DNA of 64,000 nucleotides from Deltaproteobacteria bacterium (GTDB lineage: Bacteria > Myxococcota_A > UBA9042 > DTJE01), in assembly GCA_029555025.1 (NCBI GenBank), contig JAKPTZ010000115.1, forward strand, positions 24,898-88,897. The letters are read 5' to 3'. How positions within the stretch are numbered: position 1 is the first letter of the stretch; every line of letters starts with the position of its first letter. Made by a program: the position numbers and the translations under genes. Of the stretch, positions 5,320-20,522 are shown piece by piece. Below the pieces are notes generated by a model, which saw only the letters and a program-made list of their open reading frames with translations, searched no databases and was not told the origin of the DNA.

Positions 5320-5916
5320 ATGGAAACTGGTTGCCCGGAAAGGGAAGAAAAGGGTGAGCAGGGCTCGCCGGCCGTCCAGGCCAGGCTTTTCGACAACAGA
5401 ACCATTGTTTTCGGATCGGAGGTTTCTCCGAAAACGGCGACCGCCTTGATCGAGCAGTTGCTTGCGATGGATGCGGCCGATCCGGCCGCACCGATCACAC
5501 TGTTCCTCAACTCTCCGGGAGGCGAGGTCAATTCCGGTTTCGCCATCTACGACGTAATCCGGTTCATCCGCCCTCCGGTCAGGATAGTGTGTACCGGGCT
5601 TTCGGCCAGCATAGCGGCGATCATTCTGCTTGCCGCCAGGCCCGAGCACAGGCTTGCCATGGCGAACGCCAGGCTTTTGCTTCACCAGCCGCTTTACAGT
5701 GGCGATGTAATCGGTCCCGCATCGGATCTTGAAATAACCGCGAACGAGATTCTGAAGTCGCGCGCCCGGATCAATTCGATAATCGCGTCGGCAACCGGTC
5801 GCGACCCTGATCAGGTTGGCGAAGACACCCAGCGGGATTTCTGGTTGACGGCCCCGGAGGCCGTGGAATACGGACTCGTTTCAAGAATCGTGTCGAGTTT
5901 TTCCGAACTGGGCTGA
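5320..5916 (+). CDS. ClpP-family serine protease (orphan, no adjacent clpX)
   Basis: ClpP fold with a Ser/His/Asp triad candidate (GLSASIAA, LHQPL, Asp near the C-terminus). The N-terminus is atypical. Confidence 0.7.
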   Translation: METGCPEREEKGEQGSPAVQARLFDNRTIVFGSEVSPKTATALIEQLLAMDAADPAAPITLFLNSPGGEVNSGFAIYDVIRFIRPPVRIVCTGLSASIAAIILLAARPEHRLAMANARLLLHQPLYSGDVIGPASDLEITANEILKSRARINSIIASATGRDPDQVGEDTQRDFWLTAPEAVEYGLVSRIVSSFSELG

Positions 5917-5927
5917 CAGGCCCTGTT

Positions 5928-7280
5928 TCATCTGAAAAGTCCCAGCTTTCCAACAAGATTGGCAGCGACCTGCCTGCCCGGGACGAGCGGATGCGCCGTC
6001 AGCGCATCGATCGCCAGTTCGACCGCCCGCGCATTTTCGCCCCGCATCGCCGCGGTAACCGACTGGACGGCCAGCCTTTCGTATTCCTTGACCCTGACGG
6101 TCAGCGTAGCGTCGGCGGCCGGCATCCTGGCGTGTCGTCCAGGGATGATTCCGGCCGACCCAACGGTGCAGTCGGTTTCCACCACGTCATCGTCGTCCAG
6201 CTCCGGAATCGAGCCGCCATTCCGGACATTGAGCGCCATAAGCCGACCGTTCGTGGACGCCGACGACGCCAGGAGTTCCATCGCGACTTCGGCGTATCCG
6301 CCGATTTCCGTCTCAAGGTATTGAAGGGCCTCCGCCATGGTTGACGGCCCCGGCGTGCCGTGCCTGTGGCCCAGCGCATACGACATATACGTGTCGTTGC
6401 GGGAGAAGAGATATCTGGCGTAGTGGATGGTCTTTTCCCGCGATCCCATTCCGGGAAGGCTTTCAAGCAGTTCGGAGTTGCTTCGAAGAACGGCCTCGCC
6501 CCTGGTCAACGGTTCCGCGGCCATGGCTGCCAGGGCCTGATCCGCCCGAAGATAGTAGAAAAGATATTCGACCGGCACAGCCCCTGTCACGGCTGTCTCC
6601 TCCGCGTGCCAGGGGACTGTCCGTTCAAGAAACTCCCTGTCGGCCAGCGCCGCCGAAAGTATGTCCCGACCGCCGGCGGTAACCTTCCTGGTCCAGGACA
6701 GATGGTTCAATCCCCCGACTTCGAAGACAACGTCATGAAACGGGATCCCCGCCCATCCAGCGGCCTTCCTCGCCGCGCCCGTCGCCGAATCGCAGATGCC
6801 GACGGCCCTGTCGTGACCCTGATCGATCAGTGCCTGGGTCACCATGCCGGCCGGGTTCGTGAAGATGACCGGAAGGTACCCGGGGGCCAGCCTCTCGGCC
6901 AATTCGCAGTAACCCGTGACCGCCGGGATCGTCCTGGTCGCGAATGCGAGGCCCGCAGGCCCGGTCGTTTCCTGGCCAATGACTCCAAGGTCAAGGCAGG
7001 CCCTTTCATCAAGTGCCCGCTGCTTCTCGAAGCCGGGCCGAATCGTAAGGATCATGGCCTGGCAGCCTTCAATCGCGTCGCTCGCGCCGGAGGCGATCCG
7101 GAACGGCACGCTGGCGCCCAGGAACGCACACAGTTCAAGTCCGACCGGCATCAGCGCCTTGATGCGATCCGGACGTATGTCGAAAAGTGTTACCTCGTCG
7201 AAAGAGAAACCCGACCTGGCCACCGACGCCATCATCAGAGGAAGGCGGCTTGAGCCCGCACCGACGATACATAGTTTCAT
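5928..7280 (-). CDS. Glycoside hydrolase family 4 (NAD+/Mn2+-dependent glucosidase-like)
   Basis: An N-terminal Rossmann signature MKLCIVGAGSS, a GICD Cys motif and a GLNHLSW motif typical of GH4. I chose the start at ATG 7278-7280. Confidence 0.72.
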   Translation of the reverse strand: MKLCIVGAGSSRLPLMMASVARSGFSFDEVTLFDIRPDRIKALMPVGLELCAFLGASVPFRIASGASDAIEGCQAMILTIRPGFEKQRALDERACLDLGVIGQETTGPAGLAFATRTIPAVTGYCELAERLAPGYLPVIFTNPAGMVTQALIDQGHDRAVGICDSATGAARKAAGWAGIPFHDVVFEVGGLNHLSWTRKVTAGGRDILSAALADREFLERTVPWHAEETAVTGAVPVEYLFYYLRADQALAAMAAEPLTRGEAVLRSNSELLESLPGMGSREKTIHYARYLFSRNDTYMSYALGHRHGTPGPSTMAEALQYLETEIGGYAEVAMELLASSASTNGRLMALNVRNGGSIPELDDDDVVETDCTVGSAGIIPGRHARMPAADATLTVRVKEYERLAVQSVTAAMRGENARAVELAIDALTAHPLVPGRQVAANLVGKLGLFR

Positions 7281-7308
7281 TGGGTACTCCACCCCACGGG
7301 GTCGCAAA

Positions 7309-8175
7309 TCACCTGAAAAGCAGAAGCGGAGGGCCGTCGGGCGTAACCGTGATTCTGCTGCCGAAATCAACGGGAACCGCCGTTCGCCGGCCGTCAAGGT
7401 AAACCCCGGATCGAATCATGCGTGACTGCAAGACGATGCCTTCATCCCCCAGCATTCCGGAAACAAGCCGGTATCTGATCGAGTCCGGACGGCACCCGAA
7501 TGGTTCCCGGACAAGGTACTGCAGCCGGGTATCCTGCAGATCCTGAATCGAACCGCCCGCAGAGAGCATGGCGCCTGTTGAGCCGGCCGCCGTCGAGATC
7601 CAGACCCCCGAGCTCTTGTGGGTTTCGGACACCCCGGCCACCGTAATGACGTACCTGGATGTCGCCGACGGCACGACGTTGGCGAAAAGCACGTCGTTAA
7701 GGGCCGGCTGCGGGTGCCTTCTGCCGTCGATCGTGACGAAGGCGCGGGTCAGGCTTGCGGGCTGCTTCCGGTCGGAAAGGACAAGTTCCAGCAGCGACGG
7801 AAATCCTTCGGAGGTCGTGGCGCAGAAATGGCCGAAACTTGTCGATGGGGACGAGTTGACCGCCAGCAGCGGGGTGTTTCGGATGAACCTCGCGATGTCC
7901 AGGACGGTTCCGTCGCCGCCGACCGCAATCACGAGGTCGAATTTCTTCGACACGTTGTTTCTTCTGCGGGCGTGCGTGACTTCGATCCCGGCCTGCTCGA
8001 GTGTCCGCTTCACAACGGAAATCGTTTCAACAGTCTTGCGGTGTCCCGGTTCCTCGTCCGCCACCAGCGGATCCCCGGCATCAAGCAGCCGCTTCAGGGG
8101 CTGTGTCGCGTGCATGGATCTGCCCACGTCCATCAGCGTCGTCTTGGTGGCAAGCAGAACCCTTGAAATCTTCAT
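7309..8175 (-). CDS. nadK: NAD+ kinase
   Basis: GGDGT motif (VIAVGGDGTVL). The length and fold are consistent with NadK/PpnK. Its start codon lies 2 nt after the Lon-like gene stop. Confidence 0.8.
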   Translation of the reverse strand: MKISRVLLATKTTLMDVGRSMHATQPLKRLLDAGDPLVADEEPGHRKTVETISVVKRTLEQAGIEVTHARRRNNVSKKFDLVIAVGGDGTVLDIARFIRNTPLLAVNSSPSTSFGHFCATTSEGFPSLLELVLSDRKQPASLTRAFVTIDGRRHPQPALNDVLFANVVPSATSRYVITVAGVSETHKSSGVWISTAAGSTGAMLSAGGSIQDLQDTRLQYLVREPFGCRPDSIRYRLVSGMLGDEGIVLQSRMIRSGVYLDGRRTAVPVDFGSRITVTPDGPPLLLFR

Positions 8176-8177
8176 CG

Positions 8178-10610
8178 TCAGGTCGTTTTCCGCTTTCCGG
8201 CCTTTCCAGGTCGGTCCCGTTCGGGCTTTTCCTTCTCGCTCATCGCCTTGACCGCAGCGTCGGTCGCGGCGAAAACCGAACCTTTTTCCCAGGTTCCGTC
8301 TTCCTGCCTGGTTCCGGCCGGCAAGCCGGTCATGATTTCGACCACTTCCTCGATGCGGCGAGCCGCCCAGATGTTGAAGCGTCGTTTCCTGACGGCCTCC
8401 TCGACCTCCGGTTCCAGAACCAGGTTGCGCTGGTTCGCGGCAGGAATGATCACACCCTGGCGTCCGGTCAGTCCGCGTTCACTGCAAATCTTGAAAAAGC
8501 CCTCGATCTTCTCGTTGACGCCACCGACCGCCTGCACGTCTCCGGTCTGGTTCAGGCTTCCGGTGACGGCGACGTCCTGCCTCAGCGGAATCCGGGAAAG
8601 CGAGGACAGAACCGCGCAGAATTCCGCGCATGAAGCCGAGTCCCCGTCGATGCGTCCGTACGACTGTTCGACCGTCAGGCTGACCGTGATGCCGGGAACG
8701 CGATTCTTTGCGAACATGTCGCCCAGAAGGCCGGAAATGATGAGGACGGCCTTGTTGAAGGTGTTTCCGGAAAGCCTTGCCTCGCGTTCGACGTTGATGA
8801 TTCCGGCGGAACCCCGGAATGATTTGGCGGTGATCCTCAGAGGCATCCCGAAAGTCTGGTCGGCCATCTGATAAACGGCAAGTCCGTTGATGACGCCGGG
8901 AATCGCGCCCTCGGAATCGATGATGACGGTTCCGTTCAGGACCATCTCGACGCCCTTGTCCCAGGAGAGCGAAACGCGATCCTTGCGCTGGCGGCGCGCG
9001 GCGATGATGTGCCTGGCGTCGATGATTGCCGATCCTTCCTGGCGTGCCAGGTGATCCGCCTCGATCAGCAGGTTCAGAACCAGATTGAACTGAAGCGTGA
9101 GTCTGTCGGACGCGTCGGCCATCCGCATGGAGTATTCGATCACGTCCGCGACGCCGGCCGACGAAACGGGAAGCAGTCCGTCACGTTCACTGGTCGTGGC
9201 TATGAACCTTGCATATTCCTGGAGCATGTCGTCGGAAACGGCGACTTCCGAGTCGAACTCCGCCTTGATCTGGAAGGCTTTTCCAAATTCCTCGTCTGCC
9301 TCGTGCAGAAGCTGGTACAGGAAATTGCTGCCTACCAGGATTACCTTGCAGGACATCGGGATCGGATTCGGCCGGATGGTCGTGGTAGGCAGGAACTGGT
9401 AGGCCTCGCCCATCTCGGCAATCTCCAGCAGCCTTTGACGCAGCACGGTCTTCAAGGCCTCCCACGCAAACGGATACGACACCAGTTCCCGGGTATGCAG
9501 AATCAGGAATCCGCCGTTTGCCCGAAGCAGAGAGCCAGCCTTGATCATCGTGAAATCGGTTGAATAGATGCCGTTTTCAACGCGCTTCTCGATGCGCCCG
9601 ACAAGGTTGTGGTAAGTCGGGGTGTTTTCGAAGACGACCGGCGCGCCCCTGACTTCGGAGTTGTCCACCAGCAGGTTGACCTTGTATTCGGTCATTGCCG
9701 CTTCGATGAGTTGTTTGGTCATGCCGTCGTCGGAGTCCTCGGCCAGGAATCGCGGGATGTTTTCAAGAATGCTGGCCCTGACCGCCTCCAGGTGGGCTAT
9801 CACTTCCGGACAAGATGAGTATTCGGCCAGCAGGGCCTTCATCGACTCATCCATCGTTTCGGCACACAGGCGGTTGTTGGCCACCTGAACCTTCGCATGG
9901 ACAATCTGCTCCGCTTCCTTGTTCTTTTCGAAAAACGCCGCGATTGCAGGCTCGATTGCCCTGCGGTTTTCATCGATGGTCTTCTTCTGGGCGTCCGAAA
10001 GCTTCGCGTATTCCTTGTTGCTGATGGCCTCGCCGTCAACCACGGGTATGGTGACCAGGCCTTCCTTTGTCTGCTTCACCTGGAAGTTGTTCCTGCCTGC
10101 CACCTCGTCCAGCCGTTCGAAGGCCTCGTTTTCGATGGCCAGTCCCTCGTTCAGGATTTCCTGAAGCGTTTCCTGGTGTTTCTGGGTGTGAAAGGCCCTG
10201 GGCAGGTTCTTCTTCAGCGAAGAAATGAACTCGTCCATCTGACCGCGGAACTGAAGCCCCTTGCCTGCCGGCAGGCTGAAAACCCTTGGGGTTTCGGGGT
10301 GCTTGAAGTTATTGACCATGCACCAGTCGGGGGGCGTGGGCATCTGCCTGGATGCCTCATCGACAAGTCTTTTGAGAAGGCTCGACTTGCCGGTTCCGGA
10401 GGCACCTGAAACGTAGATGTTGAAGTTTCGCTTCTGGATCGAAAGGCCGAGTTCGAGAGCTTTCTGGGCCCGGGCCTGCTCAACGACCCCGACAAGCTTC
10501 TCGACGTGCCTTGTGCTCCGGAACTTGAATATGGAAGGGTTGATGTGGCGATGTACCTGCTTCCAGCCCAGGCGGCAGTCTTTTTCAGCGGACGGTTTTT
10601 TCGCGGCCAT
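8178..10610 (-). CDS. Lon-like ATP-dependent protease (AAA+ ATPase plus S16 peptidase domain; BrxL/LonC/YcbZ-like)
   Basis: 810 aa. The N-terminal Walker A is VSGASGTGKSS. The C-terminal S16 domain carries a catalytic Ser motif (GDSASCAEF) and a Lys (NEKIEGFF). The long AAA region resembles stand-alone Lon-like proteases. Confidence 0.75.
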   Translation of the reverse strand: MAAKKPSAEKDCRLGWKQVHRHINPSIFKFRSTRHVEKLVGVVEQARAQKALELGLSIQKRNFNIYVSGASGTGKSSLLKRLVDEASRQMPTPPDWCMVNNFKHPETPRVFSLPAGKGLQFRGQMDEFISSLKKNLPRAFHTQKHQETLQEILNEGLAIENEAFERLDEVAGRNNFQVKQTKEGLVTIPVVDGEAISNKEYAKLSDAQKKTIDENRRAIEPAIAAFFEKNKEAEQIVHAKVQVANNRLCAETMDESMKALLAEYSSCPEVIAHLEAVRASILENIPRFLAEDSDDGMTKQLIEAAMTEYKVNLLVDNSEVRGAPVVFENTPTYHNLVGRIEKRVENGIYSTDFTMIKAGSLLRANGGFLILHTRELVSYPFAWEALKTVLRQRLLEIAEMGEAYQFLPTTTIRPNPIPMSCKVILVGSNFLYQLLHEADEEFGKAFQIKAEFDSEVAVSDDMLQEYARFIATTSERDGLLPVSSAGVADVIEYSMRMADASDRLTLQFNLVLNLLIEADHLARQEGSAIIDARHIIAARRQRKDRVSLSWDKGVEMVLNGTVIIDSEGAIPGVINGLAVYQMADQTFGMPLRITAKSFRGSAGIINVEREARLSGNTFNKAVLIISGLLGDMFAKNRVPGITVSLTVEQSYGRIDGDSASCAEFCAVLSSLSRIPLRQDVAVTGSLNQTGDVQAVGGVNEKIEGFFKICSERGLTGRQGVIIPAANQRNLVLEPEVEEAVRKRRFNIWAARRIEEVVEIMTGLPAGTRQEDGTWEKGSVFAATDAAVKAMSEKEKPERDRPGKAGKRKTT

Positions 10611-10692
10611 CGTCTGGCTCCAGAACGGTTTCGCGAAAGCCTATCACGATTGACGGAAAGCGGGGGACTCTCAAAGTTTGCCTTCCGGGGGA

Positions 10693-12318
10693 TCACCTTG
10701 CGGAGCCCTGACGGAGTTCAGGTGGAAGGTATCGCGAAAAGGCCCCGGCACCGGAGTTGGAACCGAAGCTTGCCCCCGATTCCAGCCCGCTTCCGGCGGT
10801 GGCCTTGACAGCGACCCCGCCGCGGGAGGCGTCGGTGACCGTCCAGTTCCTGCCGCCGATGATGACGTCGGCACCGGCGGCCGTCCTGGCCGACACCATG
10901 CCGACGGTGCGCCCTGTCCCCGCATCCACGACTTTGATCGAGGCGGAGTCGGCGATATTGGAGTGTATGCGTCCCCGTTCGCCCATGTCCATCAATCTTG
11001 ACGAGGCCCGAAGCACTTCGCCGGCGCTTTCGTCCAGGAAGCCTTCGGTACGCAGGTGATCGACGATCGCGTCGATGACCGGGCCAGGTGCGACGGGGTC
11101 AAGGATTCTTCGGATCGTGGCGCGTCGAAGTCCCTTTCTGTTTTCAAACAGAAGGGAAAATATCTGCTGAACCGCGACCGACAGGTCTGGCAGCCTTTCT
11201 GACTGCGGGAATGCCTGTTCGACGACGTCATTCATCAGCATCGCGAATCTTCCTTCATCCCCCGGTCCGTCCGGAACGAATATGGCCCTCATGCCGTCGC
11301 GCCGCCTGCAACCGCGGCCGACCCTCTGCTGGAGCGATGCGACCGTTTCGGGCGCTCCGAACAGAACGACTGCATCGACGTCACCGATATCGACCCCGAG
11401 TTCCATGGTGGATGTCGAGACCAGGATGCCTGCCTCGAAGTACCTGAAAGCCTTTTCAACGTCCTCGCGTTCCCGGCGGGCGAGGCTGGCGTGGTGCACC
11501 ATGACTCTCTCGGCCGGCCACGGGCCCGTCCTGAGCACCAGGGCCGCGGTTTCCTCGGTCTTCTTCCTGGTGTTGCAGAATATTATGGCCTTCGTGAGCC
11601 GTTCCGAACGCAGAAGCGCGAGTGCGGACGGGATGTCGGGGGACACCGTGGCATCCAGAGGCCTTCTTCTGTCATCCCGAACGACCTCGGGCCTTTCACC
11701 GAAAAGTCGCGTTCCCAGGCCGGCGGGATCCCCGACGGTCGCCGTTACGGCAATCAGCCGGGGCCTGGCCGCCGACCGTTTCATCTGAATCCGTCGAATC
11801 AGTATCCGCAACTGGTCGCCGCGCGCGGTACCGTCCATCAGGTGCGCCTCGTCGATGACGATCGCGTGAAGGTTGTCGAAAGCCGCCGGATGGCGGCAAA
11901 GCAGCGAATCGAAAGACTCCGGCGTCGTAATCAGGAGGTCGGTGTGATCCCTTCCAACCGGTGAAGGGCGGTCGCCGGTCCTGACCCGGCTGCTCATCTT
12001 CATTGCCGCGGCCGGCTCGCGAACGCGGTTTTCGATGTCGTTAGCCAGCGCCCTGGTGGGAACGATGTACAGAATGCCAACCTGCGGACGGGGATCTTCA
12101 ATGGCGGCCATTTCCTCGAAAAGCGGGGCGAGCACGGCCTCGGTCTTGCCGGAAGCGGCGGGCGCGACAACGACGGCATCCCGCCCCGAGGCAATGACCG
12201 GAATCGCAAGTTCCTGGATCCCGGTAAGGTTGCCGAAGCGGGCCAGAAATGCCGGAAACGCGCGCGGAAGGGATCTGGCGGCATCCATCCGGCTGAATCT
12301 GTCGATGCCCGGTTTCAA
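10693..12318 (-). CDS. Lhr-like DEAH-box helicase (BrxHI-like)
   Basis: Motif I APAASGKTEAVLAP (Lhr-type GKTEA), DEAH in VIDEAH, helicase C motifs, and a C-terminal extension. The TTG start overlaps the stop of the upstream ATPase. Confidence 0.75.
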   Translation of the reverse strand: MKPGIDRFSRMDAARSLPRAFPAFLARFGNLTGIQELAIPVIASGRDAVVVAPAASGKTEAVLAPLFEEMAAIEDPRPQVGILYIVPTRALANDIENRVREPAAAMKMSSRVRTGDRPSPVGRDHTDLLITTPESFDSLLCRHPAAFDNLHAIVIDEAHLMDGTARGDQLRILIRRIQMKRSAARPRLIAVTATVGDPAGLGTRLFGERPEVVRDDRRRPLDATVSPDIPSALALLRSERLTKAIIFCNTRKKTEETAALVLRTGPWPAERVMVHHASLARREREDVEKAFRYFEAGILVSTSTMELGVDIGDVDAVVLFGAPETVASLQQRVGRGCRRRDGMRAIFVPDGPGDEGRFAMLMNDVVEQAFPQSERLPDLSVAVQQIFSLLFENRKGLRRATIRRILDPVAPGPVIDAIVDHLRTEGFLDESAGEVLRASSRLMDMGERGRIHSNIADSASIKVVDAGTGRTVGMVSARTAAGADVIIGGRNWTVTDASRGGVAVKATAGSGLESGASFGSNSGAGAFSRYLPPELRQGSAR

Positions 12319-13832
12319 ATCGCGTCGCCTTCGCCACCGGAAACGACCATCTGTTCCACGTCGCCATCGGGATAGAAGCGGACGTAGTCGAGGGCTTCGA
12401 TCACGGACTTGATGAACGTTCTGGTCGATTGTATCCGGTCGGCCGTGTACAGCAGCCTGAACAGCCTGTCCTGGCGCTTCTTCTCCAGTTTCACGCCGTA
12501 CGTGGTGTCATAAGTGCGGCATATCCTGCGGAAAAGCTCGCGAAGCTGATCCATTGAAAGGACATCGACCTGGACCCTTGTAATCGTTTCCCTGGTCCGG
12601 CTGAATTCATCCTGGAGCGTGCCCGGAGTAAGCGCGAACGCGACCTTCAGGGCACCGGGAATTCCGGTGGTGTATCTGACGGGGTGATGTGCCGAGTATA
12701 TCAGGCCGGATACCGCGCCCTGGATTGTTTCGGCTCGAATGAGTTCCTCGTCCATGAGTACGTCGTCATCGTTGGCTGTAAGGACAAGCCCGCGGAAGAA
12801 GTTCATTCCGCGCTGGGCCTGGTATCGGTACATTACGCTTCCGGCCACTTCCGCCTCGTCCAGAAGAACCAGCAGGCCCATCATTCCAAGGACTTCCGAT
12901 GCTGCCCTGGCAGTTGCCGAAAGTATGTTGCAGTAGATGTTGGCACAGGTCGAGTAATCGTAAAGCGTCTTCTTGCGCCCGATCCGGCCTTCCCCGCGGG
13001 CTTCGATGAAGTCCCATTCTTCCTCGGTAAGTCCTGGCCTTTCGTGCGGCTCCTCCTCCTGGAGCCGCTCCAGGACGCTTGCAAAAAGCCAGTGGTCGCC
13101 AAGGACATCCCGCCAGCCCGGCCGGGACGCCACTTCACGCCAGAATCCACGGAAGTTCAACACCCGGTCATCAACGACGGCCTTGAATCCGGTGACCAGA
13201 TGCCGGTAAGCCTTCTTGGGAAAAGCTGCCGATGCCTCGGATGGATCGAAACCCGCCATGGCGACCGCGTAGCCCAGTTGCTCCGCTTCGCCCGCCAGGA
13301 ATCGCAGCAGGTGGCTCTTGCCCGCGCCGTAGGCCCCTTCCACCAGGGCTGCGCCCTCGGCATGGTCGTGAAGGAATTCCATCAGTTGCCCGACTTCATC
13401 CTTGCGCCCGACCGTCCACTCCCCGATCGATGAAGATGGCACGATCCCAAGCCTGAAGGCCTCTATAGCCATGCTTGCACTGACCGGCCGGTTTTCCGGC
13501 AGCATTCGATACACCGGAGCCCGATGTTTCCTGGCTCCTGCAGGTTCCTCGCTCGCTGGAGCCTGTCCCCCAAGCAGGCGGAGGATTGCGTCAAGGGATG
13601 TGCTGGAGGGTGCCGTCGATCGAACAGCCGGAGCCTCGTCTTCGACGAGCTTCAGCCCTTCACCGGCACGGACAAGTTCCCGCGCCGGGATCCACAGGCT
13701 GTAAACCCCGAAGTTGACACGGAATTCAAATCCGCCAATCCGTGAACCAAGCACCGTGCCGTCGCCATATGTGGCATGCGTCACGGCATCGCCCTTTTCG
13801 AACCTATTCATAGATATCGTCCGGGTCGGCAT
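12315..13832 (-). CDS. P-loop ATPase, paralog 2 (BrxD/DUF2791-like candidate)
   Basis: Walker A EGAYGAGKSHLL and Walker B LLVLLDEAE. It is a clear paralog of the upstream ATPase. Its 3' end overlaps the helicase start. Confidence 0.65.
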   Translation of the reverse strand: MPTRTISMNRFEKGDAVTHATYGDGTVLGSRIGGFEFRVNFGVYSLWIPARELVRAGEGLKLVEDEAPAVRSTAPSSTSLDAILRLLGGQAPASEEPAGARKHRAPVYRMLPENRPVSASMAIEAFRLGIVPSSSIGEWTVGRKDEVGQLMEFLHDHAEGAALVEGAYGAGKSHLLRFLAGEAEQLGYAVAMAGFDPSEASAAFPKKAYRHLVTGFKAVVDDRVLNFRGFWREVASRPGWRDVLGDHWLFASVLERLQEEEPHERPGLTEEEWDFIEARGEGRIGRKKTLYDYSTCANIYCNILSATARAASEVLGMMGLLVLLDEAEVAGSVMYRYQAQRGMNFFRGLVLTANDDDVLMDEELIRAETIQGAVSGLIYSAHHPVRYTTGIPGALKVAFALTPGTLQDEFSRTRETITRVQVDVLSMDQLRELFRRICRTYDTTYGVKLEKKRQDRLFRLLYTADRIQSTRTFIKSVIEALDYVRFYPDGDVEQMVVSGGEGDAI

Positions 13833-15093
13833 CTTCGCCGGGCGAAAGCATTCGCGTGGCGAATTCCTCGTCGATCACGGTGTCCGGTTCGAACCGCAGC
13901 GCGTGCATTGCCCGCACGACGGCCTGGACGAACATTCTCTTGTACCCTATGTCGCCAAAGGCGCGTTCGGCGGTCGCATCCGCGAGAACCCTTACCAGAT
14001 TGCGGGTCTGATCGGCCGGCATGCGGAACTGGTAGGCGTTTTCATAGACGCCGCACAGTTTTCTTCCGATGTCGTTCATCAAGGTCTTCGGATCCCTTGC
14101 GATTCGATCAAGCCGGACTTTGACGCCGGTGGGGTTCGTGTAGTCGAATACCGTCTGAATTCTCTGGCGAAGCGCTTCGTAAGCCGGAGATCGGCCCTCG
14201 GTCAGGAACTGCTCGTTTGGAATGGCATAAAAGACCATCGTGTTCGCGAACGAGGAAGCCCCGCACTGATCAACCATCTCGCGCAGGTTGGCCAGCATCA
14301 GTTCCTTCTGCTTGGAAGTCATCGAGCCGGCCTGTTCGGCCTCGTCGAACAGGATGATGATGCCGCCGAAGCGCAGGTTCCGAACCCACGTCACCAGTGA
14401 TCTGATCGTGGCGAACGCCTGGGATCTGTCAATCGGCTGCAGAACCCCTCCAGCCTTGTGCGACAGCCGATCCCAGCCATCGACGGTAAGGTACTGCAGC
14501 ATTGCGTCGAACTGATCCTGGTCATTGCGGGTCAACGCTTCAATGGCAAGTCGGACGGCCTTCCCGAAATTCGGGTTTTCGCAGCCACGAACCGAATCGG
14601 CCGCAATTGCCCTGATGCGATCTTCCAGTTGTTCGCCGGCGATGCCTTCCTCTTCGGCGATGGCGGTCTTCATGTCGTGATAGACCGCCTTGATGAAGGC
14701 GCCGAGCCCGCGCTCCCCGCCGGTCAGGAGTTCATCCGGCGTCAGTGGACGCATCAGGTTGACCGCGATGGACTTGTAAACCATGTCCAGGCGGTGGAAC
14801 GGCGACGATTCCGCCGAAAGCGGGCAGTATGTGACCAGGTAGTCATGACGCCAGGCAAGCTCGCGGACGCTGTACAGGAAGTGTGTCTTGCCGCCGCCAT
14901 ACGTTCCGACGACGACTTTGAACGACGACCCGCCTTCGCGGACGAATGACTTGAGGTAATCGTCCTCGATCACCTTCAGGTACCCGTCAAGGCCCGAGGA
15001 AAAGAACTGGAAACCCCATTCGGGCGGGGTTCCGGACGAACCGACCACTTCGATAATGTGGCGGGCCTGCCTGGCGGTCAGGTTGTCAACCAT
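13804..15093 (-). CDS. P-loop ATPase, paralog 1 (BrxD/DUF2791-like candidate)
   Basis: Walker A VGTYGGGKTHFL and Walker B IIILFDEAE. I chose the start at the internal Met MVDNLTARQ to avoid a 119-nt overlap with the upstream gene. Confidence 0.62.
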   Translation of the reverse strand: MVDNLTARQARHIIEVVGSSGTPPEWGFQFFSSGLDGYLKVIEDDYLKSFVREGGSSFKVVVGTYGGGKTHFLYSVRELAWRHDYLVTYCPLSAESSPFHRLDMVYKSIAVNLMRPLTPDELLTGGERGLGAFIKAVYHDMKTAIAEEEGIAGEQLEDRIRAIAADSVRGCENPNFGKAVRLAIEALTRNDQDQFDAMLQYLTVDGWDRLSHKAGGVLQPIDRSQAFATIRSLVTWVRNLRFGGIIILFDEAEQAGSMTSKQKELMLANLREMVDQCGASSFANTMVFYAIPNEQFLTEGRSPAYEALRQRIQTVFDYTNPTGVKVRLDRIARDPKTLMNDIGRKLCGVYENAYQFRMPADQTRNLVRVLADATAERAFGDIGYKRMFVQAVVRAMHALRFEPDTVIDEEFATRMLSPGEDADPDDIYE

Positions 15094-15124
15094 CTGAAAT
15101 CTCCCGTTCCTGAGTCGTCCAAAC

Positions 15125-15988
15125 TCAGGCAGTAACCTTAACAAACCGGAGCGTTGCGAAGTTAACGCCCTCAAGGATTCCAGGTCTCGGCACCCAGAGG
15201 TGATCCCCGGCATTCCTTGTCTGGGACATCGTCGCCACGTCAAGCCTCAGTTCCATTCCCCGGATGATCCGGTTTCTGAGCCTTGACAGATCCGCCGCGA
15301 ATTCCACCCTTCCGTACGACCTGAAGGTCTCCTTTCGCGGATCAATCAGGAAGGCCGGCTTCTGGCGCATAAAGGCGATTTCCGGGATCAGCGACGTGAC
15401 CGGCACGCGGCCCCCGGACTCGGCACCGGTGCGTATCACGGCCAGCCGGTAAGCCTTTTCAAGTTCGGCAAGGAAAGCCGGCTCGTCGAAAGAATCCGGA
15501 AAGAGCCTGCCGTTCTGTTCCCGGATCTGCGCGCAGATGTCTTCGGGATCCAGAGAAGCCGCCGCCAGCCTGTATTTGCCGGGTCCAAGCCATATGGTGC
15601 ACAGGCCCTTTGAACCGAATGTGAATTCCAGCGAGAAAGGCCCGGCCGTCAGCGTGGGAAGGTTTCCGGACACCTTGAAGTCTTCTTCGTTCAGGCGTTT
15701 TGCGACCGCTCCCGCAAGCAGCGCCTTCTCGCGATCAAGGCGGCTGCGGGATTCCGACAGCGTCGCCGCAATCGCCGCCTTCATTGCCGCGGCGCCCGTT
15801 TCCAGCCCGGCGATGTCCCCGATTGCCCGCAACGCCCTTTCGGCCATGTCGATTGATGATGCCAGGTTCCCCTTGCGGTGTTCCCTGGAGAATTCCTCAA
15901 CCGACTTTCCGGCGTTGGCGGCAGCCTTGATGGCCTTCAGGAACGTCTTGACCTGTTCTTCCATGGGCTTCCCCCGGGGTTGCTTCAT
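15125..15988 (-). CDS. Hypothetical protein, first gene of the ATPase/helicase/Lon module
   Basis: 287-aa ORF with coding-like composition, co-directional and closely spaced with the ATPase genes. I recognise no motif. Confidence 0.5.
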   Translation of the reverse strand: MKQPRGKPMEEQVKTFLKAIKAAANAGKSVEEFSREHRKGNLASSIDMAERALRAIGDIAGLETGAAAMKAAIAATLSESRSRLDREKALLAGAVAKRLNEEDFKVSGNLPTLTAGPFSLEFTFGSKGLCTIWLGPGKYRLAAASLDPEDICAQIREQNGRLFPDSFDEPAFLAELEKAYRLAVIRTGAESGGRVPVTSLIPEIAFMRQKPAFLIDPRKETFRSYGRVEFAADLSRLRNRIIRGMELRLDVATMSQTRNAGDHLWVPRPGILEGVNFATLRFVKVTA

Positions 15989-16074
15989 CCGATCCGGGTC
16001 GCCCCGGCCGCGCAGTATTATAAGGCCAAATCAATTTATGGCGATTGAAAGCGTGTAACCTGTCGGGAACTTCG

Positions 16075-17076
16075 TCAGCGCGCGGCCTCGCGGGACAGGA
16101 GGTCTTTCCATTGATCACCGAAGAGTCCATCCAGCATCCTGCGGAAATCGCCCGGAAGCGGGGCGGTGATATCCATCTGTTGTCCGGTGACGGGGTGGGC
16201 GAAGCGAATGTTCCAGGCATGAAGGGCATGACGCTTGATCATTTCCAGGGCGGCCACCTCGGATTCGGGGCGGCTTCCCCTGCGGGGCCATCCGCGGCCA
16301 TAGACGCGATCGCCGACAATCGGGTGCCCGGCCTCGGACAGGTGAACCCTTATTTGATGTGTTCTTCCGGTCATCGGTTTGGCCGCCACGAGCGCGCACA
16401 GGTTGGCGCGCATAAGCGTCCGGTATCCGGTCACCGCGTCGCGGCCGTCGCGCACGCGCCCGGTGAACTGGCGTCTGTCCCCGGTTCGTCTGCCGAAGGA
16501 TGTCTCGATGAGTCCCTGGTCGTCGATGCCTGGTCCAAGCACCACGGCCAGGTACGTCTTGTTGATTGTGCGCTCGCGGAACATGTCCCCGAGAAGTTCG
16601 TGTGTGTGATTGTCCCTTGCGACGATCATCACGCCCGAAGTGTCCTTGTCCAGCCGGTGTACTATTCCCGGCCTGTCCGGTCCGCCGAAGTTCGAAAATG
16701 TGCGGCCGGACGCCAGGAGCTGGTTCACAAGTGTTCCCGAGCCGTGTCCCGCGCCCGGGTGAACGACCAGTCCGGCCCGCTTGTTGATCACCATCAGGAA
16801 TTCATCCTCGAAAAGGATTTCCAGTTCCGGGCCACCGTGTTCGGGAGCGGGACCGGCATGGTCGGACGGCGGCGGCGGAGTCAGTTCCACCTGCATTCCG
16901 GCTGCAAGCCTGAAGCCTGCCGGTCGTTGCCTTCCGTTGACCAGCGCCGCCCCGTTCTTGATCAATTTCTGGGCGAGCGACCTGGAGATGGCGGGGAATC
17001 TGGCCGCGATGACCATGTCAAGCCTTGCGCCGTTTTCGTGATCCCCCGTTTCAAATCGCAGCAGATCTTCTTTCAT
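16075..17076 (-). CDS. rluD: RluA-family 23S rRNA pseudouridine synthase (RluD-like, S4 domain)
   Basis: S4-like N-terminus and the catalytic motif HRLDKDTSG. Confidence 0.8.
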   Translation of the reverse strand: MKEDLLRFETGDHENGARLDMVIAARFPAISRSLAQKLIKNGAALVNGRQRPAGFRLAAGMQVELTPPPPSDHAGPAPEHGGPELEILFEDEFLMVINKRAGLVVHPGAGHGSGTLVNQLLASGRTFSNFGGPDRPGIVHRLDKDTSGVMIVARDNHTHELLGDMFRERTINKTYLAVVLGPGIDDQGLIETSFGRRTGDRRQFTGRVRDGRDAVTGYRTLMRANLCALVAAKPMTGRTHQIRVHLSEAGHPIVGDRVYGRGWPRRGSRPESEVAALEMIKRHALHAWNIRFAHPVTGQQMDITAPLPGDFRRMLDGLFGDQWKDLLSREAAR

Positions 17077-17309
17077 CGGCCAAATCCGGGTTGTCCATTT
17101 TCGGACAAGTGAAAAAGTACGTCGCGGATTGTAACATGGATCCGTCCGGGCCGGGCCGGACGCCTTCGCGCGCCATGCCGTCAGCCAGAGTGCCGGCCCT
17201 TGTCTGGCGGCGCGTTTCGGGCGATCATGCCGGCTGAAGCGGTCTGAATGTTGTGCGGGGATTGTCTGCCGGGCGTCGCAAGTCGATCGCCGGGCATCGG
17301 AGATTCCAG

Positions 17310-20300
17310 ATGCGAACCGGGTCTTCCGGGATGTTGCCGGTCGTTGCGATGGCGTGTCTATTTGTGTCGTCGTGCGGCAGCCATGTGGAGAAGGCCGATA
17401 TCGGGGGCTCCTGCCGGGAAGACTCCGATTGTCAATCCGCCCTCTGTTTCGCAGACGTATGCATCGATCCCCTGGCGGACCAGGATTGGGACGGTCTTTC
17501 GGCGGGCGATGAAGTTGAAATCGGGCTGGATCCGTTTCACCCGGACAGTGATCGCGACGGCATTCCCGACGGCCTGGAAGTGGGCCCCGAGCTTGCGACT
17601 CCGGCGGATTATGACGGGGACGGCGTCATCGACGCTCTTGAGTCCGCTTTTTCGGATTCTGACGGGGACTGCCTTCCGGATCAGTATGATCCTCTCGATG
17701 CGCTCGGGCCGGCCGGCTCAAGTCAGATGGTGCCGGTGCTGTGCATGACAGCCGGGGTCTGCGGGGCCGCAATGAACACCATTGTCGCTACCTGCGACGG
17801 CTCGAAGGTAACGTGCAGCTATGAAGGCGTGCCAGGCTGGAACGCCGCGGAATGGATGTGTGACGGAAAGGACAACAACTGCGACGGTCGAACCGACGAA
17901 GGTTTTCTTCACGAAGGCTTGTCCATCGGACTTCCCTGCCTTGGGGCAGGAAGTTGTGGCCCGGGTATCGTCGAGTGCGATGACTCGGGCTTTTCGACCA
18001 GGTGTTCGTCAAACCCCGGCGCTTCTGGCGACAGATCCATGCCCGAGGTGTGCGACGGTCTCGACAACGATTGCGACGGCTTGACCGACAACGGCATGTC
18101 GTGGAAGGGCGTGCCCCTCGGGGAACGTTGTGACGGCGAAGGCGAGTGCGGCATCGGCAAGGTCGAATGCCTGGCCGACAGGACGGCTTCCTGTTCAACC
18201 ATGAAGGGTGGAAGTCACGAACAGATCCAGGAGGAATCCTGTGACAACCTTGACAACGACTGTGATGGACGAACCGACGAGACATTTTTCGGCAACGCTT
18301 CCGAACTGTGCGTTCCCCGCGGCGTCTGCGCCCTGTTCCCCAACATGATTTCGTTGAAGTGCGAGCAGGGGATCCTGAAATGCGACTTCAGTGCTGTGCC
18401 TGGGTATTCGGGAAGTTCCGAGATGTTCTGTGATGGACAGGATGACGATTGCGACGGGCTGGTTGACGAGGAACTGTCGTTCGCGGTGACCGAACCTGGC
18501 GCCGTGATAAGGCTTCCCGGCCAGTCCTGCGGTTCGGGCGCCTGTGCCGGCGGGGTCGTCACGTGCTCGCCGAGTTCGATGTCCGGCATGTGTTCCACCA
18601 CGCCCCTTGCCGCGCCGGAGAAGTGCGATGGAATCGATGACGACTGCGACGGGTACATAGACAACGGTTTCGCCCTGAGTTGGAAGCCGGCGCTTGAAAC
18701 CATCATGGACAGGGAGCCGCAGGCGCTTGTTTCGTCGCGGATGGCCGTGGTCGAGTATTCCCTGGAGGATCCGCCTGAACCAGGTGAACCGCCTGCCGGC
18801 ATATATGTATGCGGCGGGGCCGTTGGAAGTCCTGAGAACGGTTCGTCCGGGATTTCAAGGCGTTGCTGGCTGTACAGCTTTGATTCGCATCGTTTCGATC
18901 GACTTCCCGACGGGCCCGAAGTCGATTCGGGGGCGATGGTTCATGACAGGGCGGGCGGAAGCCTGCTGATGGTGGGTCGTCTGTTCGCGTCCGGCGAAGT
19001 CGCCGTTTTCCGGATGAACGGAATCGATTTCGGATGGAGCAGGCTGCCCTGGGAACTGGAAAGTGGCGAGGTTCTTGCCGCCGGAGTGGATCCGGTTGAA
19101 AACACCCTGAATATCCTCACGAATGGTGATTCCGGGCTTCTGGTGAGCATGGTCGGGCTGTCCGATGGCTCCGTCCTGACCGTTCAGGCGGGCGAGCGCG
19201 TCTCTGCCGGCTCCTTTGCCGCCGGTTCGCCCTCCGGGGGGTTTGTCCTGTTTCATGCCTGCAACGAGCTTGCCGGCACTGTGGTCGAACATGTCTCGCC
19301 GGACGGGCAGGTCAACGGGCTGCCGCTTGCAGGACAGAGTCCATGCATGTCCTTCGGCGCGGCGGTCATGCCGATCCCGGGACGCATCGTCGCGATTGAG
19401 GGCAGGGCACTTGACGGCTCGGTCCAGGCCACAAGGGAATTCCTGCTGGGCGATGACCTGTGGCACCACGAAAGGATCACGGTTCCCGGCGGCCAGGGAT
19501 CCGTCATGCATCCCGCGATGGCCTCCTCTGGCGACACCGTCTATGCATTTTCCGGGGAGTATGGTGATGGAGGGGCACTGCGGCGTGTGATCCGGCTGGA
19601 TCGCGAATCGACGGAATGGCTGGTTGACAGCTTCGTAAGCGGTCCATCTCCCAGGGCGGGCGGCGTTGCGTTCGTTTCGCGCCTGACGGCGGCGGCCTAT
19701 TTCATTGGCGGCTATTCGGATGAACCGGGCGGGCCTCAGCCAGTCCAGGATGTGTGGAAGATTGATCTGGTCAATCCGCGGATTGGACAGATTGCGGTGT
19801 CGGGCGAACCAGGGGCGGTTATAGGTGCTGCTGCGGCCATCAATGATTCCGGCCAGACCGCCTACATTTTCGGGGGGCTCGATTCGCCGCCGGGGCCCGA
19901 CTCCAGGCCGGTTAGCAGGTTCCTTCGGTTCAACTGCATTCAGTCGAGGTTTGATTCGATTCAGTCGGGGGAAGGCGGTCCGACGGCACGTTATGGACAC
20001 TCGCTTGTCTGGGCCGGTGACAGGTTGCTTCTTTACGGCGGCCTGAACGACACCGGTTTCCTTTCCGATCTCTGGTCCTGGGCTCCGGACGAAGGCTGGA
20101 TCTTCATTGGATATTTCGAACTCAGCTATGGCCACCAGGCGTTCTGGGACAATCCCGGCAAGCGCATGCTGGTCGTCGGGGGCAGGCCAGGTGGGGGCCT
20201 TCGCGCATACTATCCCGCCACATCCACGTGGAAAAGCCTGCTGTCCGGGGTTCTGTTCGATTCGTATGAAGGCCACGGCTGGTTTGACGAGCAATCCGGC

Positions 20301-20522
20301 AGCGTGCTTTATCTTTCATCGACATCCAGCGACGCGGTGGTCGTGACTTTCCTTGAAGACGGGCTTGTCGATCAGGTCATCCCCGGACTGCAGCCGGATT
20401 TGATCGATGCGTTCGTGGTTTATGATCCGTTCGGGCGCCGGGCCATGATGCTCGGTGGCAGGGATCCCTCGAACGGGACCGTCGGAACCGTTTCGCAAAT
20501 CGATCAGTCCTGCGGGCGATGA
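17310..20522 (+). CDS. Large secreted lipoprotein with TSP3-like Ca-binding repeats, MopE-like Cys motifs and a Kelch/beta-propeller C-terminus
   Basis: Lipoprotein signal MRTGSSGMLPVVAMACLFVSSC and D-rich DxDxDG repeats. Five CDGxDNDCDGxxDE motifs (putative metal-binding motif type) are present. The C-terminal region has Kelch-like repeats. Confidence 0.68.
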   Translation: MRTGSSGMLPVVAMACLFVSSCGSHVEKADIGGSCREDSDCQSALCFADVCIDPLADQDWDGLSAGDEVEIGLDPFHPDSDRDGIPDGLEVGPELATPADYDGDGVIDALESAFSDSDGDCLPDQYDPLDALGPAGSSQMVPVLCMTAGVCGAAMNTIVATCDGSKVTCSYEGVPGWNAAEWMCDGKDNNCDGRTDEGFLHEGLSIGLPCLGAGSCGPGIVECDDSGFSTRCSSNPGASGDRSMPEVCDGLDNDCDGLTDNGMSWKGVPLGERCDGEGECGIGKVECLADRTASCSTMKGGSHEQIQEESCDNLDNDCDGRTDETFFGNASELCVPRGVCALFPNMISLKCEQGILKCDFSAVPGYSGSSEMFCDGQDDDCDGLVDEELSFAVTEPGAVIRLPGQSCGSGACAGGVVTCSPSSMSGMCSTTPLAAPEKCDGIDDDCDGYIDNGFALSWKPALETIMDREPQALVSSRMAVVEYSLEDPPEPGEPPAGIYVCGGAVGSPENGSSGISRRCWLYSFDSHRFDRLPDGPEVDSGAMVHDRAGGSLLMVGRLFASGEVAVFRMNGIDFGWSRLPWELESGEVLAAGVDPVENTLNILTNGDSGLLVSMVGLSDGSVLTVQAGERVSAGSFAAGSPSGGFVLFHACNELAGTVVEHVSPDGQVNGLPLAGQSPCMSFGAAVMPIPGRIVAIEGRALDGSVQATREFLLGDDLWHHERITVPGGQGSVMHPAMASSGDTVYAFSGEYGDGGALRRVIRLDRESTEWLVDSFVSGPSPRAGGVAFVSRLTAAAYFIGGYSDEPGGPQPVQDVWKIDLVNPRIGQIAVSGEPGAVIGAAAAINDSGQTAYIFGGLDSPPGPDSRPVSRFLRFNCIQSRFDSIQSGEGGPTARYGHSLVWAGDRLLLYGGLNDTGFLSDLWSWAPDEGWIFIGYFELSYGHQAFWDNPGKRMLVVGGRPGGGLRAYYPATSTWKSLLSGVLFDSYEGHGWFDEQSGSVLYLSSTSSDAVVVTFLEDGLVDQVIPGLQPDLIDAFVVYDPFGRRAMMLGGRDPSNGTVGTVSQIDQSCGR

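Follow-up and report, generated by a model that had tools for sequence, protein, structure and literature searches.

A gene for a Lon-like protease lies within the window, the 64,000-nucleotide stretch of DNA analysed here, directly downstream of genes that resemble components of BREX systems. This raises the question as to whether the protease is a working part of that cassette, comparable to BrxL in BREX type 1, or an enzyme of a known kind that is encoded next to it. The analysis establishes the family membership of the protein, its domain layout, the conservation of its residues and the independence of the two gene modules; judged by its sequence and fold, the gene product is a soluble LonC-subfamily Lon-like protease of the ordinary kind, in a quality-control class that has already been characterised.

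Placement of the protease in the LonC subfamily

The open reading frame starts with ATG, occupies exactly positions 8178 to 10610 of the minus strand (the strand of all features located below), encodes 810 aa and is preceded, about 7 nt 5' of its start, by a GGAG Shine-Dalgarno-like motif. Its identification as a LonC-type gene draws on the reading frame, Pfam, the best PDB match and Foldseek. More than 1800 homologs display the identical four-domain Pfam architecture (LonC_helical, AAA_32, LonB_AAA-LID and Lon_C), and this is thus a real gene and not a chance reading frame. A preliminary description of the locus had delimited the same frame correctly, and all the motifs that it quoted are real: GASGTGKSS at aa 69-77, hence a Walker A within the first 80 aa as claimed, DGDSASCAEF at aa 655-664 and NEKIEGFF at aa 699-706. 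It was also right that the protein has neither a LonA N-domain, for which the Pfam search returned no match, nor a LonB membrane anchor, no transmembrane segment being found in the protein (maximum 19-residue Kyte-Doolittle mean of 1.26), and the AAA_32 and Lon_C profiles that it proposed as a check were both matched in Pfam.

Subfamily placement was based on rankings of phmmer bits, profile cutoffs and TM-scores. Searched against the PDB with phmmer, the protein matches LonC of Meiothermus taiwanensis (MtaLonC) at 264 bits (2e-77), TonLonB at 88 bits and LonA at 29 bits at most. The AF2 model (pLDDT 86.8) has full-length MtaLonC (8k8v_A) as its best Foldseek match, with an E-value of 1e-53 and TM-scores of 0.73/0.82 over 785 columns; TonLonB comes second at 0.54 and LonA reaches about 0.25, and the MtaLonC N-domain (4fwv) compares with the model at a TMt of 0.83. 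Archaeal LonB (TIGR00764) is the best NCBIfam match at 4.8e-41, yet its 141 bits fall far below the equivalog cutoff of 516.6, and the protein lacks both a transmembrane segment and a Walker B DE. LonA (TIGR00763, endopeptidase La) is dismissed, since its model reaches 36 bits where the cutoff is 608, no LON N-domain is present and E. coli Lon aligns over no more than a 115-aa stretch of the protease domain, in which it reads DGPSAG and the present protein DGDSAS. With LonC as best match and LonA and LonB excluded by cutoffs and motifs, the earlier view, that this Lon-like protease stands alone and differs from housekeeping Lon, is upheld.

The S16 Lon protease domain (aa ~563-760, positions 8331-8924) was recognised by Pfam Lon_C and aligned with MtaLonC, AfLonB and MjLonB. 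Both catalytic residues are invariant in 57 homologous sequences and align ungapped with MtaLonC: Ser658 of DGDSAS (codon 8637-8639) with S582, and Lys701 of NEKIEGFF (codon 8508-8510) with K625. The conservation of the dyad had been correctly noted and, since it is intact, the prediction of an active protease is a sensible inference. The residue before the catalytic serine, Asp657, is likewise invariant in the 57 sequences; an Asp rather than a Pro at this position is a criterion for LonC (PMC9569914). Two LonC-specific insertions are present. The first, CSERGLTG (aa 709-716, positions 8463-8486), fits the consensus CX3GLX(G/E) described for the segment that follows the catalytic-Lys helix and precedes the next strand (PMC3391209), aligns ungapped with MtaLonC K634-G640 and falls on a gap of 7 residues when E. 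coli LonA is aligned; its C709 is invariant in the 57 sequences. The second, VEEAV (aa 736-740, positions 8391-8405), aligns ungapped with MtaLonC V660-V664 (VLEAV), a segment of protease helix alpha5, and has no counterpart in E. coli LonA, where the alignment leaves 4 residues open.

The AAA-like module

Upstream of the protease domain, the preliminary description had seen some 450 aa without ATPase character; what is found instead is an AAA-like module split by an insertion of ~190-225 aa, in the order P-loop, helical insertion, AAA_32 and LID. The canonical P-loop or Walker A motif GASGTGKSS (aa 69-77, positions 10380-10406) takes the form GxxGTG[KR][ST][ST] in 57 of 57 homologs. It is followed by the LonC helical-hairpin extension (HHE; aa ~95-320, positions 9651-10328), which interrupts the alpha/beta domain of the AAA module after Walker A and ahead of Walker B, includes a LonC_helical Pfam match (aa 95-128, 1.5e-12) and is aligned within the full-length structural match to MtaLonC. 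In the AF2 model, the helical-hairpin insertion itself spans only about aa 117-309, with helices at 117-173 and 206-309 arranged around a beta-hairpin (176-191) and pLDDT mostly above 80. The second half of the alpha/beta domain (AAA_32, PF13654, aa 322-453, positions 9252-9647) matches the full-length profile at 4.3e-50, and the LID (alpha) subdomain (PF20436, aa 481-545, positions 8976-9170) matches at 3.2e-20.

The Walker B-like strand, FLILHT (aa 368-373, positions 9492-9509), is degenerate; it aligns with YLILDA of MtaLonC, called a Walker B-like motif by its authors (PMC3391209), and has His372 where the Asp, and Thr373 where the catalytic Glu, would be expected. Position 372 is variable among the 57 homologs (24 His, 11 Asp, 9 Glu, 7 Asn, 6 Gln), and position 373 is acidic in none of them. 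ATP hydrolysis is thus unlikely, as in MtaLonC, and the 'long AAA+ region' of the earlier account is better described as an AAA-like module, probably no working ATPase, since the catalytic Glu of Walker B is missing from the whole family. The P-loop, being canonical and strongly selected, has probably kept its ability to bind a nucleotide or phosphate, with an effect on assembly or activity. The retention of this P-loop throughout the family, without the Walker B Glu, suggests that ligand binding without hydrolysis has been selected, possibly to switch assembly or activity.

The alternative, that the protein is a genuine ATP-hydrolysing, soluble LonB-like AAA+ protease with a helical insertion, in which the P-loop and the displaced acidic residue Glu375 power substrate unfolding and translocation, carries a low but appreciable probability. 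Beside the invariant Walker A and the rank of LonB among the NCBIfam matches, it draws on an acidic residue that nearly always lies 2-3 positions past the Walker B strand (H-x-R-[ED] or [DE]-x-E-S) and on an Asn at a sensor-1-like position (GSN) in this clade; the combination of an invariant canonical P-loop and a nearby acidic residue may make the protein a non-canonical ATPase. However, the position of the Walker B Glu is hydrophobic or small in 57/57 sequences and that of the Asp is His, Asn or Gln in 37/57, the sensor-1-like Asn is not conserved (Asn in 25, Tyr in 22, others in 10), the LonB score stays below its cutoff with no membrane anchor, and ATPase activity is absent from MtaLonC and TTC1975, the nearest relatives to have been characterised (PMC3391209).

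The upstream cassette and its linkage to the protease gene

Directly upstream of the protease gene, at positions 10693-15988, lies a four-gene cassette, unk280-BrxDa-BrxDb-helicase, of BrxD-BrxD-BrxHI-like composition, which the preliminary description had not recorded and which would be the best argument for a link to defence. Its genes match BrxD/SngB and BrxHI/SngC in PADLOC, and the best matches of its helicase are BrxHI, SngC and DpdJ, with a weaker match to DruE; in a published phylogeny, these four helicases possibly form a distinct defence-associated SF2 clade (PMC12278908). The cassette is not assigned to Shango, as its first gene has no TerB domain, the mark of SngA. Apart from a generic MIT-like three-helix bundle, the confident model of this first gene product (pLDDT 90) matches no other fold significantly. 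Among the genes between ~1.5 kb and 21.6 kb of the window, the Pfam scan recognised BrxC_BrxD-family ATPases and the helicase as the only BREX-related ones, and no PglX, PglZ or BrxABC.

The protease gene follows the cassette helicase by 82 nt on the same strand. A scan of positions 5500-17300 returned 4 promoter-like sites (2.0±1.6 expected) and 10 terminator-like sites (12±4.3 expected), and the spacer between helicase and Lon (positions 10611-10692) contains none of them; the single good promoter-like match (16044-16017, 10/12) precedes the first gene of the cassette. In an alignment of this spacer from five syntenic relatives, nothing beyond a short GTGATA-containing motif is shared, and this by three. 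Co-transcription of the cassette and Lon is possible, given the shared strand, the 82-nt gap and the lack of a predicted terminator. On its other side, Lon is followed after 2 nt (tga-cg-atg) by an NAD-kinase/DAGK-like gene (positions 7309-8175; Pfam NAD_kinase 3e-9); in the relatives L001 and L004 the two genes overlap by 4 nt, and the NADK-like gene is probably co-translated with Lon in this clade.

It could be proposed that, in this Myxococcota clade, Lon has been recruited as an effector or regulator of the cassette, accompanying it as BrxL does BREX type 1, co-transcribed with it and degrading a host or phage target after infection has been sensed by the cassette; this we consider unlikely. 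Besides the close spacing and the PADLOC matches, such recruitment would fit the conservation of the order unk280-BrxDa-BrxDb-helicase-Lon from 75% down to ~53% Lon identity, and the occurrence of the cassette in other phyla next to restriction-modification (R-M) and toxin-antitoxin (TA) genes, although there without Lon. However, synteny in these relatives extends just as far to the housekeeping genes that flank the region on either side (rluX-like, NADK-like, GH4, clpP, yajC-secDF and recJ), so that vertical inheritance explains the adjacency. Moreover, 79 of 80 species genomes that carry this Lon do so without the cassette. Conversely, cassette loci were counted where 2.6 kb or more of sequence follows the helicase; Lon is present at none of the 18 in which BrxD-a is less than 60% identical and at 5 of the 7 with at least 60%, hence missing from two of the close loci as well; one cassette that is 63% identical (L100) sits in an unrelated context. 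The translational coupling of Lon, in addition, would be to the NADK-like gene and not to the helicase, and the BrxL model is unmatched.

The linkage between Lon and the cassette is therefore confined to one Myxococcota clade, and the cassette is a module independent of Lon. A defence linkage of the whole Lon family, examined from the Lon loci as well as from the cassette loci, is rejected, and the statement that proteases of this architecture are frequently found in defence loci is not borne out: 79 of the 80 loci lack BrxD and helicase, four inspected distant Lon contexts contain metabolic genes, and the commonest neighbour of the family across phyla is a Usp stress protein, encoded immediately downstream on the same strand at 11 of 80 loci. 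As the adjacency persists throughout the clade and no predicted terminator separates helicase from Lon, there is still a small probability that, in the Myxococcota clade, the LonC-type protease, with its intact dyad and canonical P-loop, is the proteolytic arm of the four-gene cassette; if true, it would be a catalytically active BrxL analogue in an uncharacterised cassette, in which a protein of orphan fold is combined with a pair of BrxD-like ATPases and a helicase of the BrxHI/SngC clade. A stand-alone Lon-like gene beside BREX-type genes is not thereby BrxL-like or a defence component, and the defence-island-associated, uncharacterised cassette is a more interesting object of the region than the Lon gene.

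Proposed function and comparison with known systems

The reading that we regard as likely is that of a soluble LonC-type protease acting as an ATP-independent ring with an HHE basket, in a stress or quality-control role and not as a dedicated component of the cassette. The protein would form a hexameric or heptameric ring like the M. taiwanensis and T. thermophilus enzymes, by analogy with which this oligomeric state is proposed; we infer its ATP-independence, substrate class and physiological role in the same conditional manner. The helical-hairpin extensions would constitute a basket capable of catching unfolded polypeptides, which the Ser658-Lys701 dyad within the chamber would cleave with no need of ATP to unfold them first. 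As for the AAA-like module, it would serve as a retained scaffold, whose P-loop ligand may tune assembly or activity; with the Walker B Glu missing and the Asp replaced by His in this clade, hydrolysis-driven translocation would be unlikely. The enzyme most likely serves in stress or quality-control proteolysis together with holdase-type chaperoning, and the protease most likely is not a dedicated part of the BrxD/BrxHI-like cassette; the frequency of Usp as a neighbour also points to a role in the stress response. For the protease itself, a widespread and characterised type, little is new.

The preliminary description had called the protein 'YcbZ/LonC/BrxL-like', a label that stands in its LonC part only. 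BrxL shares a Lon-related C-terminal domain and adjoins BREX-related families (BrxD, BrxHI), as does the LonC-type gene here. However, the PADLOC BrxL model scores a mere 15.9 bits (E 7e-4) over aa 563-731, a part of the protease domain, and no BrxL model is among the NCBIfam matches at E<=0.01; BrxL has been reported as probably no protease, its catalytic site being absent (bioRxiv 10.1101/2021.11.15.468586), whereas the dyad is intact here. E. coli YcbZ, a putative ATP-dependent protease of 586 aa, is 32% identical over aa 349-763 (distal AAA_32, LID and protease) and shares DGDSAS, NEKIEGFF, the insertion C-x3-[GE]-L-x-G and a Walker B-like strand without DE. The likeness is limited to the C-terminal 425 aa, YcbZ lacks the N-terminal P-loop segment and the LonC_helical domain, and orthology is rejected on these different architectures. 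TonLonB (PDB 3k1j) shares the B-type AAA module split between Walker A and B and the D-S active site; in comparison, the insertion is a soluble helical hairpin here and a transmembrane anchor in LonB, and the LonC insertions are present here.

The closest correspondence is with MtaLonC and TTC1975 (MEROPS S16.007; PDB 4fw9, 8k8v), with which the protein shares the domain order (P-loop segment, HHE with beta-hairpin, AAA_32, LID and S16), and MtaLonC is likewise soluble, with both protease-domain insertions, the D-S motif and a Walker B without catalytic Glu. These enzymes have no ATPase activity, degrade unfolded substrates and are heat-shock induced (PMC3391209); the HHE with its beta-hairpin hook is reported to act in chaperoning as well as in recognising substrates, and phosphate to bind at the P-loop (PMC13069640). 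As overall identity to MtaLonC is only ~26% and the N-terminal 300 aa barely align with it by sequence, functional transfer rests on architecture and fold. The two proteins also differ in length (810 aa here, 732 aa in MtaLonC), in the Walker B Asp, which is His here and Asp in MtaLonC, and in the P-loop, canonical GASGTGKSS here and degenerate GPPSLGKHE in MtaLonC (PMC3391209). A degenerate Walker A has served as a mark of LonC; the canonical motif found here is a difference inside the subfamily and no ground for exclusion. Finally, MtaLonC comes from a Thermus-group thermophile and the present protein from a mesophile-type, Myxococcota-like genome. The LonC type, known from such thermophiles and cited in 2022 with 8 MEROPS members, is thereby extended to a family of very large size and broad phylogenetic range, present in at least 600 species genomes.

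Domain architecture and LonC membership

The Lon-like protease gene occupies positions 8178-10610 of the minus strand exactly as claimed in the preliminary description, as an ATG-initiated open reading frame of 810 aa with a GGAG motif about 7 nt 5' of the start. The motifs quoted there were located (GASGTGKSS, aa 69-77; DGDSASCAEF, 655-664; NEKIEGFF, 699-706), and the protein does lack both a LonA N-domain by Pfam search and a transmembrane-like segment (maximum 19-residue Kyte-Doolittle mean, 1.26). Both the AAA_32 and Lon_C profiles match in Pfam, the latter at aa 655-759 (E 3.6e-11). The non-ATPase region of about 450 aa that had been placed ahead of the protease domain is absent; Pfam assigns LonC_helical (aa 95-128, E 1.5e-12), AAA_32 (aa 322-453, E 4e-50) and LonB_AAA-LID (aa 481-545, E 3e-20) to that stretch. 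This domain order means that the AAA-like module is split: the P-loop is followed by an insertion of about 190-225 aa and then by the rest of the α/β domain and the LID. An AlphaFold2 prediction from 57 homologs has high confidence (pLDDT 86.8, pTM 0.73) and shows residues 117-309 as long helices flanking a β-hairpin (176-191).

In a PDB sequence search, the LonC of Meiothermus taiwanensis (MtaLonC, a TTC1975-type peptidase) comes first by far (264 bits, 2e-77), followed by the LonB of T. onnurineus (TonLonB, 88 bits) and by LonA enzymes at 29 bits or less. The structural ranking by Foldseek is the same, with the full-length MtaLonC cryo-EM structure 8k8v as best match (E 1e-53, TM 0.73/0.82, 785 columns), TonLonB at TM 0.54 and LonA at about 0.25. 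The NCBIfam equivalogs for LonB, sporulation LonB/LonC and LonA all score far under their cutoffs (TIGR00764, 141 against 516.6). Among the features listed in the paper that defined LonC are two protease-domain insertions, of which one follows the catalytic-Lys helix with the consensus CX3GLX(G/E) and the other lies in α5 (PMC3391209). Their counterparts here, CSERGLTG (709-716) and VEEAV (736-740), align without gaps to MtaLonC and face gaps of seven and four residues, respectively, in E. coli LonA. With both insertions present, and with an Asp before the catalytic Ser like that of LonB and LonC, LonC membership is well supported. The family is very large, with more than 1800 matches and at least 600 species genomes.

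A constrained P-loop and altered hydrolysis residues

Across a 57-sequence alignment of Lon homologs (38-75% identity), the P-loop GxxGTG[KR][ST][ST] is found in every sequence. At the Walker B Asp position 24 sequences have H, 11 D, 9 E, 7 N and 6 Q; in place of the catalytic Glu stands A, I, T, M or V, never an acidic residue; and the sensor-1-like position is Asn solely in the clade of the window protein. The Walker B-like strand of the latter, FLILHT, agrees with the loss of hydrolysis residues seen in LonC; LonC has degenerate AAA+ motifs and no ATPase activity (PMC3391209). By comparison with MtaLonC, whose degenerate P-loop (GPPSLGKHE) has nothing but phosphate bound in structures (PMC3391209, PMC13069640), the P-loop of the present family is textbook and strongly constrained, and these motifs suggest that it binds a ligand without hydrolysis.

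In nearly all homologs an acidic residue lies two to three positions past the Walker B strand (H-x-R-[ED] or [DE]-x-E-S). It is because of this near-constant residue that a genuine non-canonical ATPase can be entertained from sequence, although this reading is unlikely. The segment covaries (window 9486-9509, aa 368-375): with H, Q or N at 372, positions 374-375 are usually R/x then E/D, and with D or E at 372 they are E-S. About one acidic residue thus appears always to be retained near the P-loop, at shifting positions.

Later work on LonC describes a helical-hairpin extension and a β-hairpin hook that recognise substrates and give chaperone activity (PMC13069640). The window protein is probably both a protease and a holdase: it would assemble as a ring-shaped, chambered Ser-Lys protease with no need of ATP hydrolysis, its helical-hairpin basket would capture unfolded proteins, and its conserved P-loop would hold a ligand, nucleotide or phosphate, with a possible influence on assembly.

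Genomic surroundings of the protease gene

Directly upstream on the same strand lies a four-gene cassette (10693-15988) encoding an orphan protein of 287 aa without family match (15125-15988), two BrxC_BrxD-family ATPases, BrxD-a (13804 to about 15093, about 429 aa; PADLOC BrxD 1e-36) and BrxD-b (12315-13832, 505 aa; Pfam BrxC_BrxD, PADLOC BrxD 8e-11), and a DEAD-box helicase of 541 aa (10693-12318; best PADLOC matches BrxHI, 2e-73, and SngC, 3e-56). The cassette looks like support for the earlier suggestion of a defence role, and linkage was therefore tested in both directions. Lon homologs of at least 53% identity retain the whole block, and with it the housekeeping genes on its flanks (rluX-like, NADK-like, GH4, clpP, yajC-secDF and recJ); those at 47% or less lie in unrelated metabolic surroundings. 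Among 80 species-level genome loci, which span many phyla and a methanogen, the cassette accompanies Lon only in the closest (a Myxococcota MAG, 54%). Conversely, other phyla have the cassette with no Lon at all: it adjoins a Type I R-M system with an OLD-family nuclease (locus L091) or an enzyme of Eco57I type together with a PLD-SNF2 protein (L090), or lies near a PIN/Phd pair (L088). Of 80 metagenomic cassette loci, the 25 that extend 2.6 kb or more past the helicase were used for counting Lon, which is present in 0/18 with BrxD-a below 60% identity versus 5/7 at 60% or above; the two exceptions (L100 and L101, 63%) sit among SDR, asparagine synthase and UDP-glucose dehydrogenase genes. Both tests lead to the conclusion that Lon and the cassette are independent modules whose adjacency is a vertically inherited, clade-specific juxtaposition; clade-specific recruitment of Lon into the cassette is unlikely.

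Helicase and Lon are separated by an 82-nt spacer. When this spacer was aligned across five syntenic relatives, three of them proved to share only a short motif with GTGATA, some 30-40 nt ahead of the Lon start codon (10630-10660, minus strand, in the window; also L001 and L004), which is a candidate -10-like element for a promoter of Lon's own. The best sigma-70-like match in the region (16017-16044, minus strand; TCGCCA-16-TATAAT, 10/12) sits just upstream of the first cassette gene, before the gene for the rluX-like pseudouridine synthase (16075-17076) is reached, and promoter and terminator scans of the Lon-cassette region gave matches at background level. Beyond, a plus-strand gene (17253-20522) encodes a protein of 1089 aa in which Kelch β-propeller repeats occur along with repeated, putatively metal-binding motifs of MopE type; relatives L001 and L003 conserve it in this position.

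The cassette matches no complete known system, having two BrxD paralogs and lacking TerB and PglX/PglZ. Canonical Shango was rejected, as fold searches with the orphan gene revealed no TerB and nothing beyond a generic MIT-like three-helix bundle. The cassette probably represents an unclassified module of defence islands and is of greater interest than the adjacent Lon gene. At L090 (11245-14124, FWPV01000191.1) the BrxD-b-like ATPase and the helicase are fused into one protein of 959 aa, which supports a direct physical partnership of the two.

Downstream, 2 nt separate the Lon stop from the NADK-like start, and in relatives the pair overlaps by 4 nt. Tight packing on the minus strand (5928-8180) of Lon, the NAD-kinase/DAGK-like gene (7309-8175) and a GH4 glycosidase gene (5928-7397) suggests a clade-specific operon. 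Family-wide, unbiased neighbour clustering in the 80 genomes yielded no recurrent defence gene, so that the statement that such proteases are frequently found in defence loci was not borne out. The commonest recurrent neighbour is a Usp-family protein (PF00582) of about 280 aa, whose gene follows Lon immediately and on the same strand in 11/80 loci (L029, L042, L047, L048, L051, L058, L065, L067, L068, L083 and L086) from at least four phyla, including Chloroflexota, Gammaproteobacteria, a Rhodopirellula MAG and a Chlorobium MAG; tsaE-tsaB synteny in Bacillota comes next. A conserved LonC-Usp stress operon is possible, and this neighbourhood agrees with what has been published on LonC in heat shock and quality control.

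Comparison with BrxL, YcbZ and LonC

The composite YcbZ/LonC/BrxL-like label of the preliminary description survives in part. The PADLOC BrxL profile reaches 15.9 bits, in the protease domain only, and BrxL itself, according to a published report, is probably no protease, as it has no catalytic site (bioRxiv 10.1101/2021.11.15.468586). The likeness to E. coli YcbZ is confined to the C-terminal 425 aa (32% identity, LonC-type insertion included); the segment with the P-loop and the insertion of helices, both present here, are missing from YcbZ. It is the LonC element that stands, on PDB similarity, fold and insertions, and the window protein is a further example of this already known kind.
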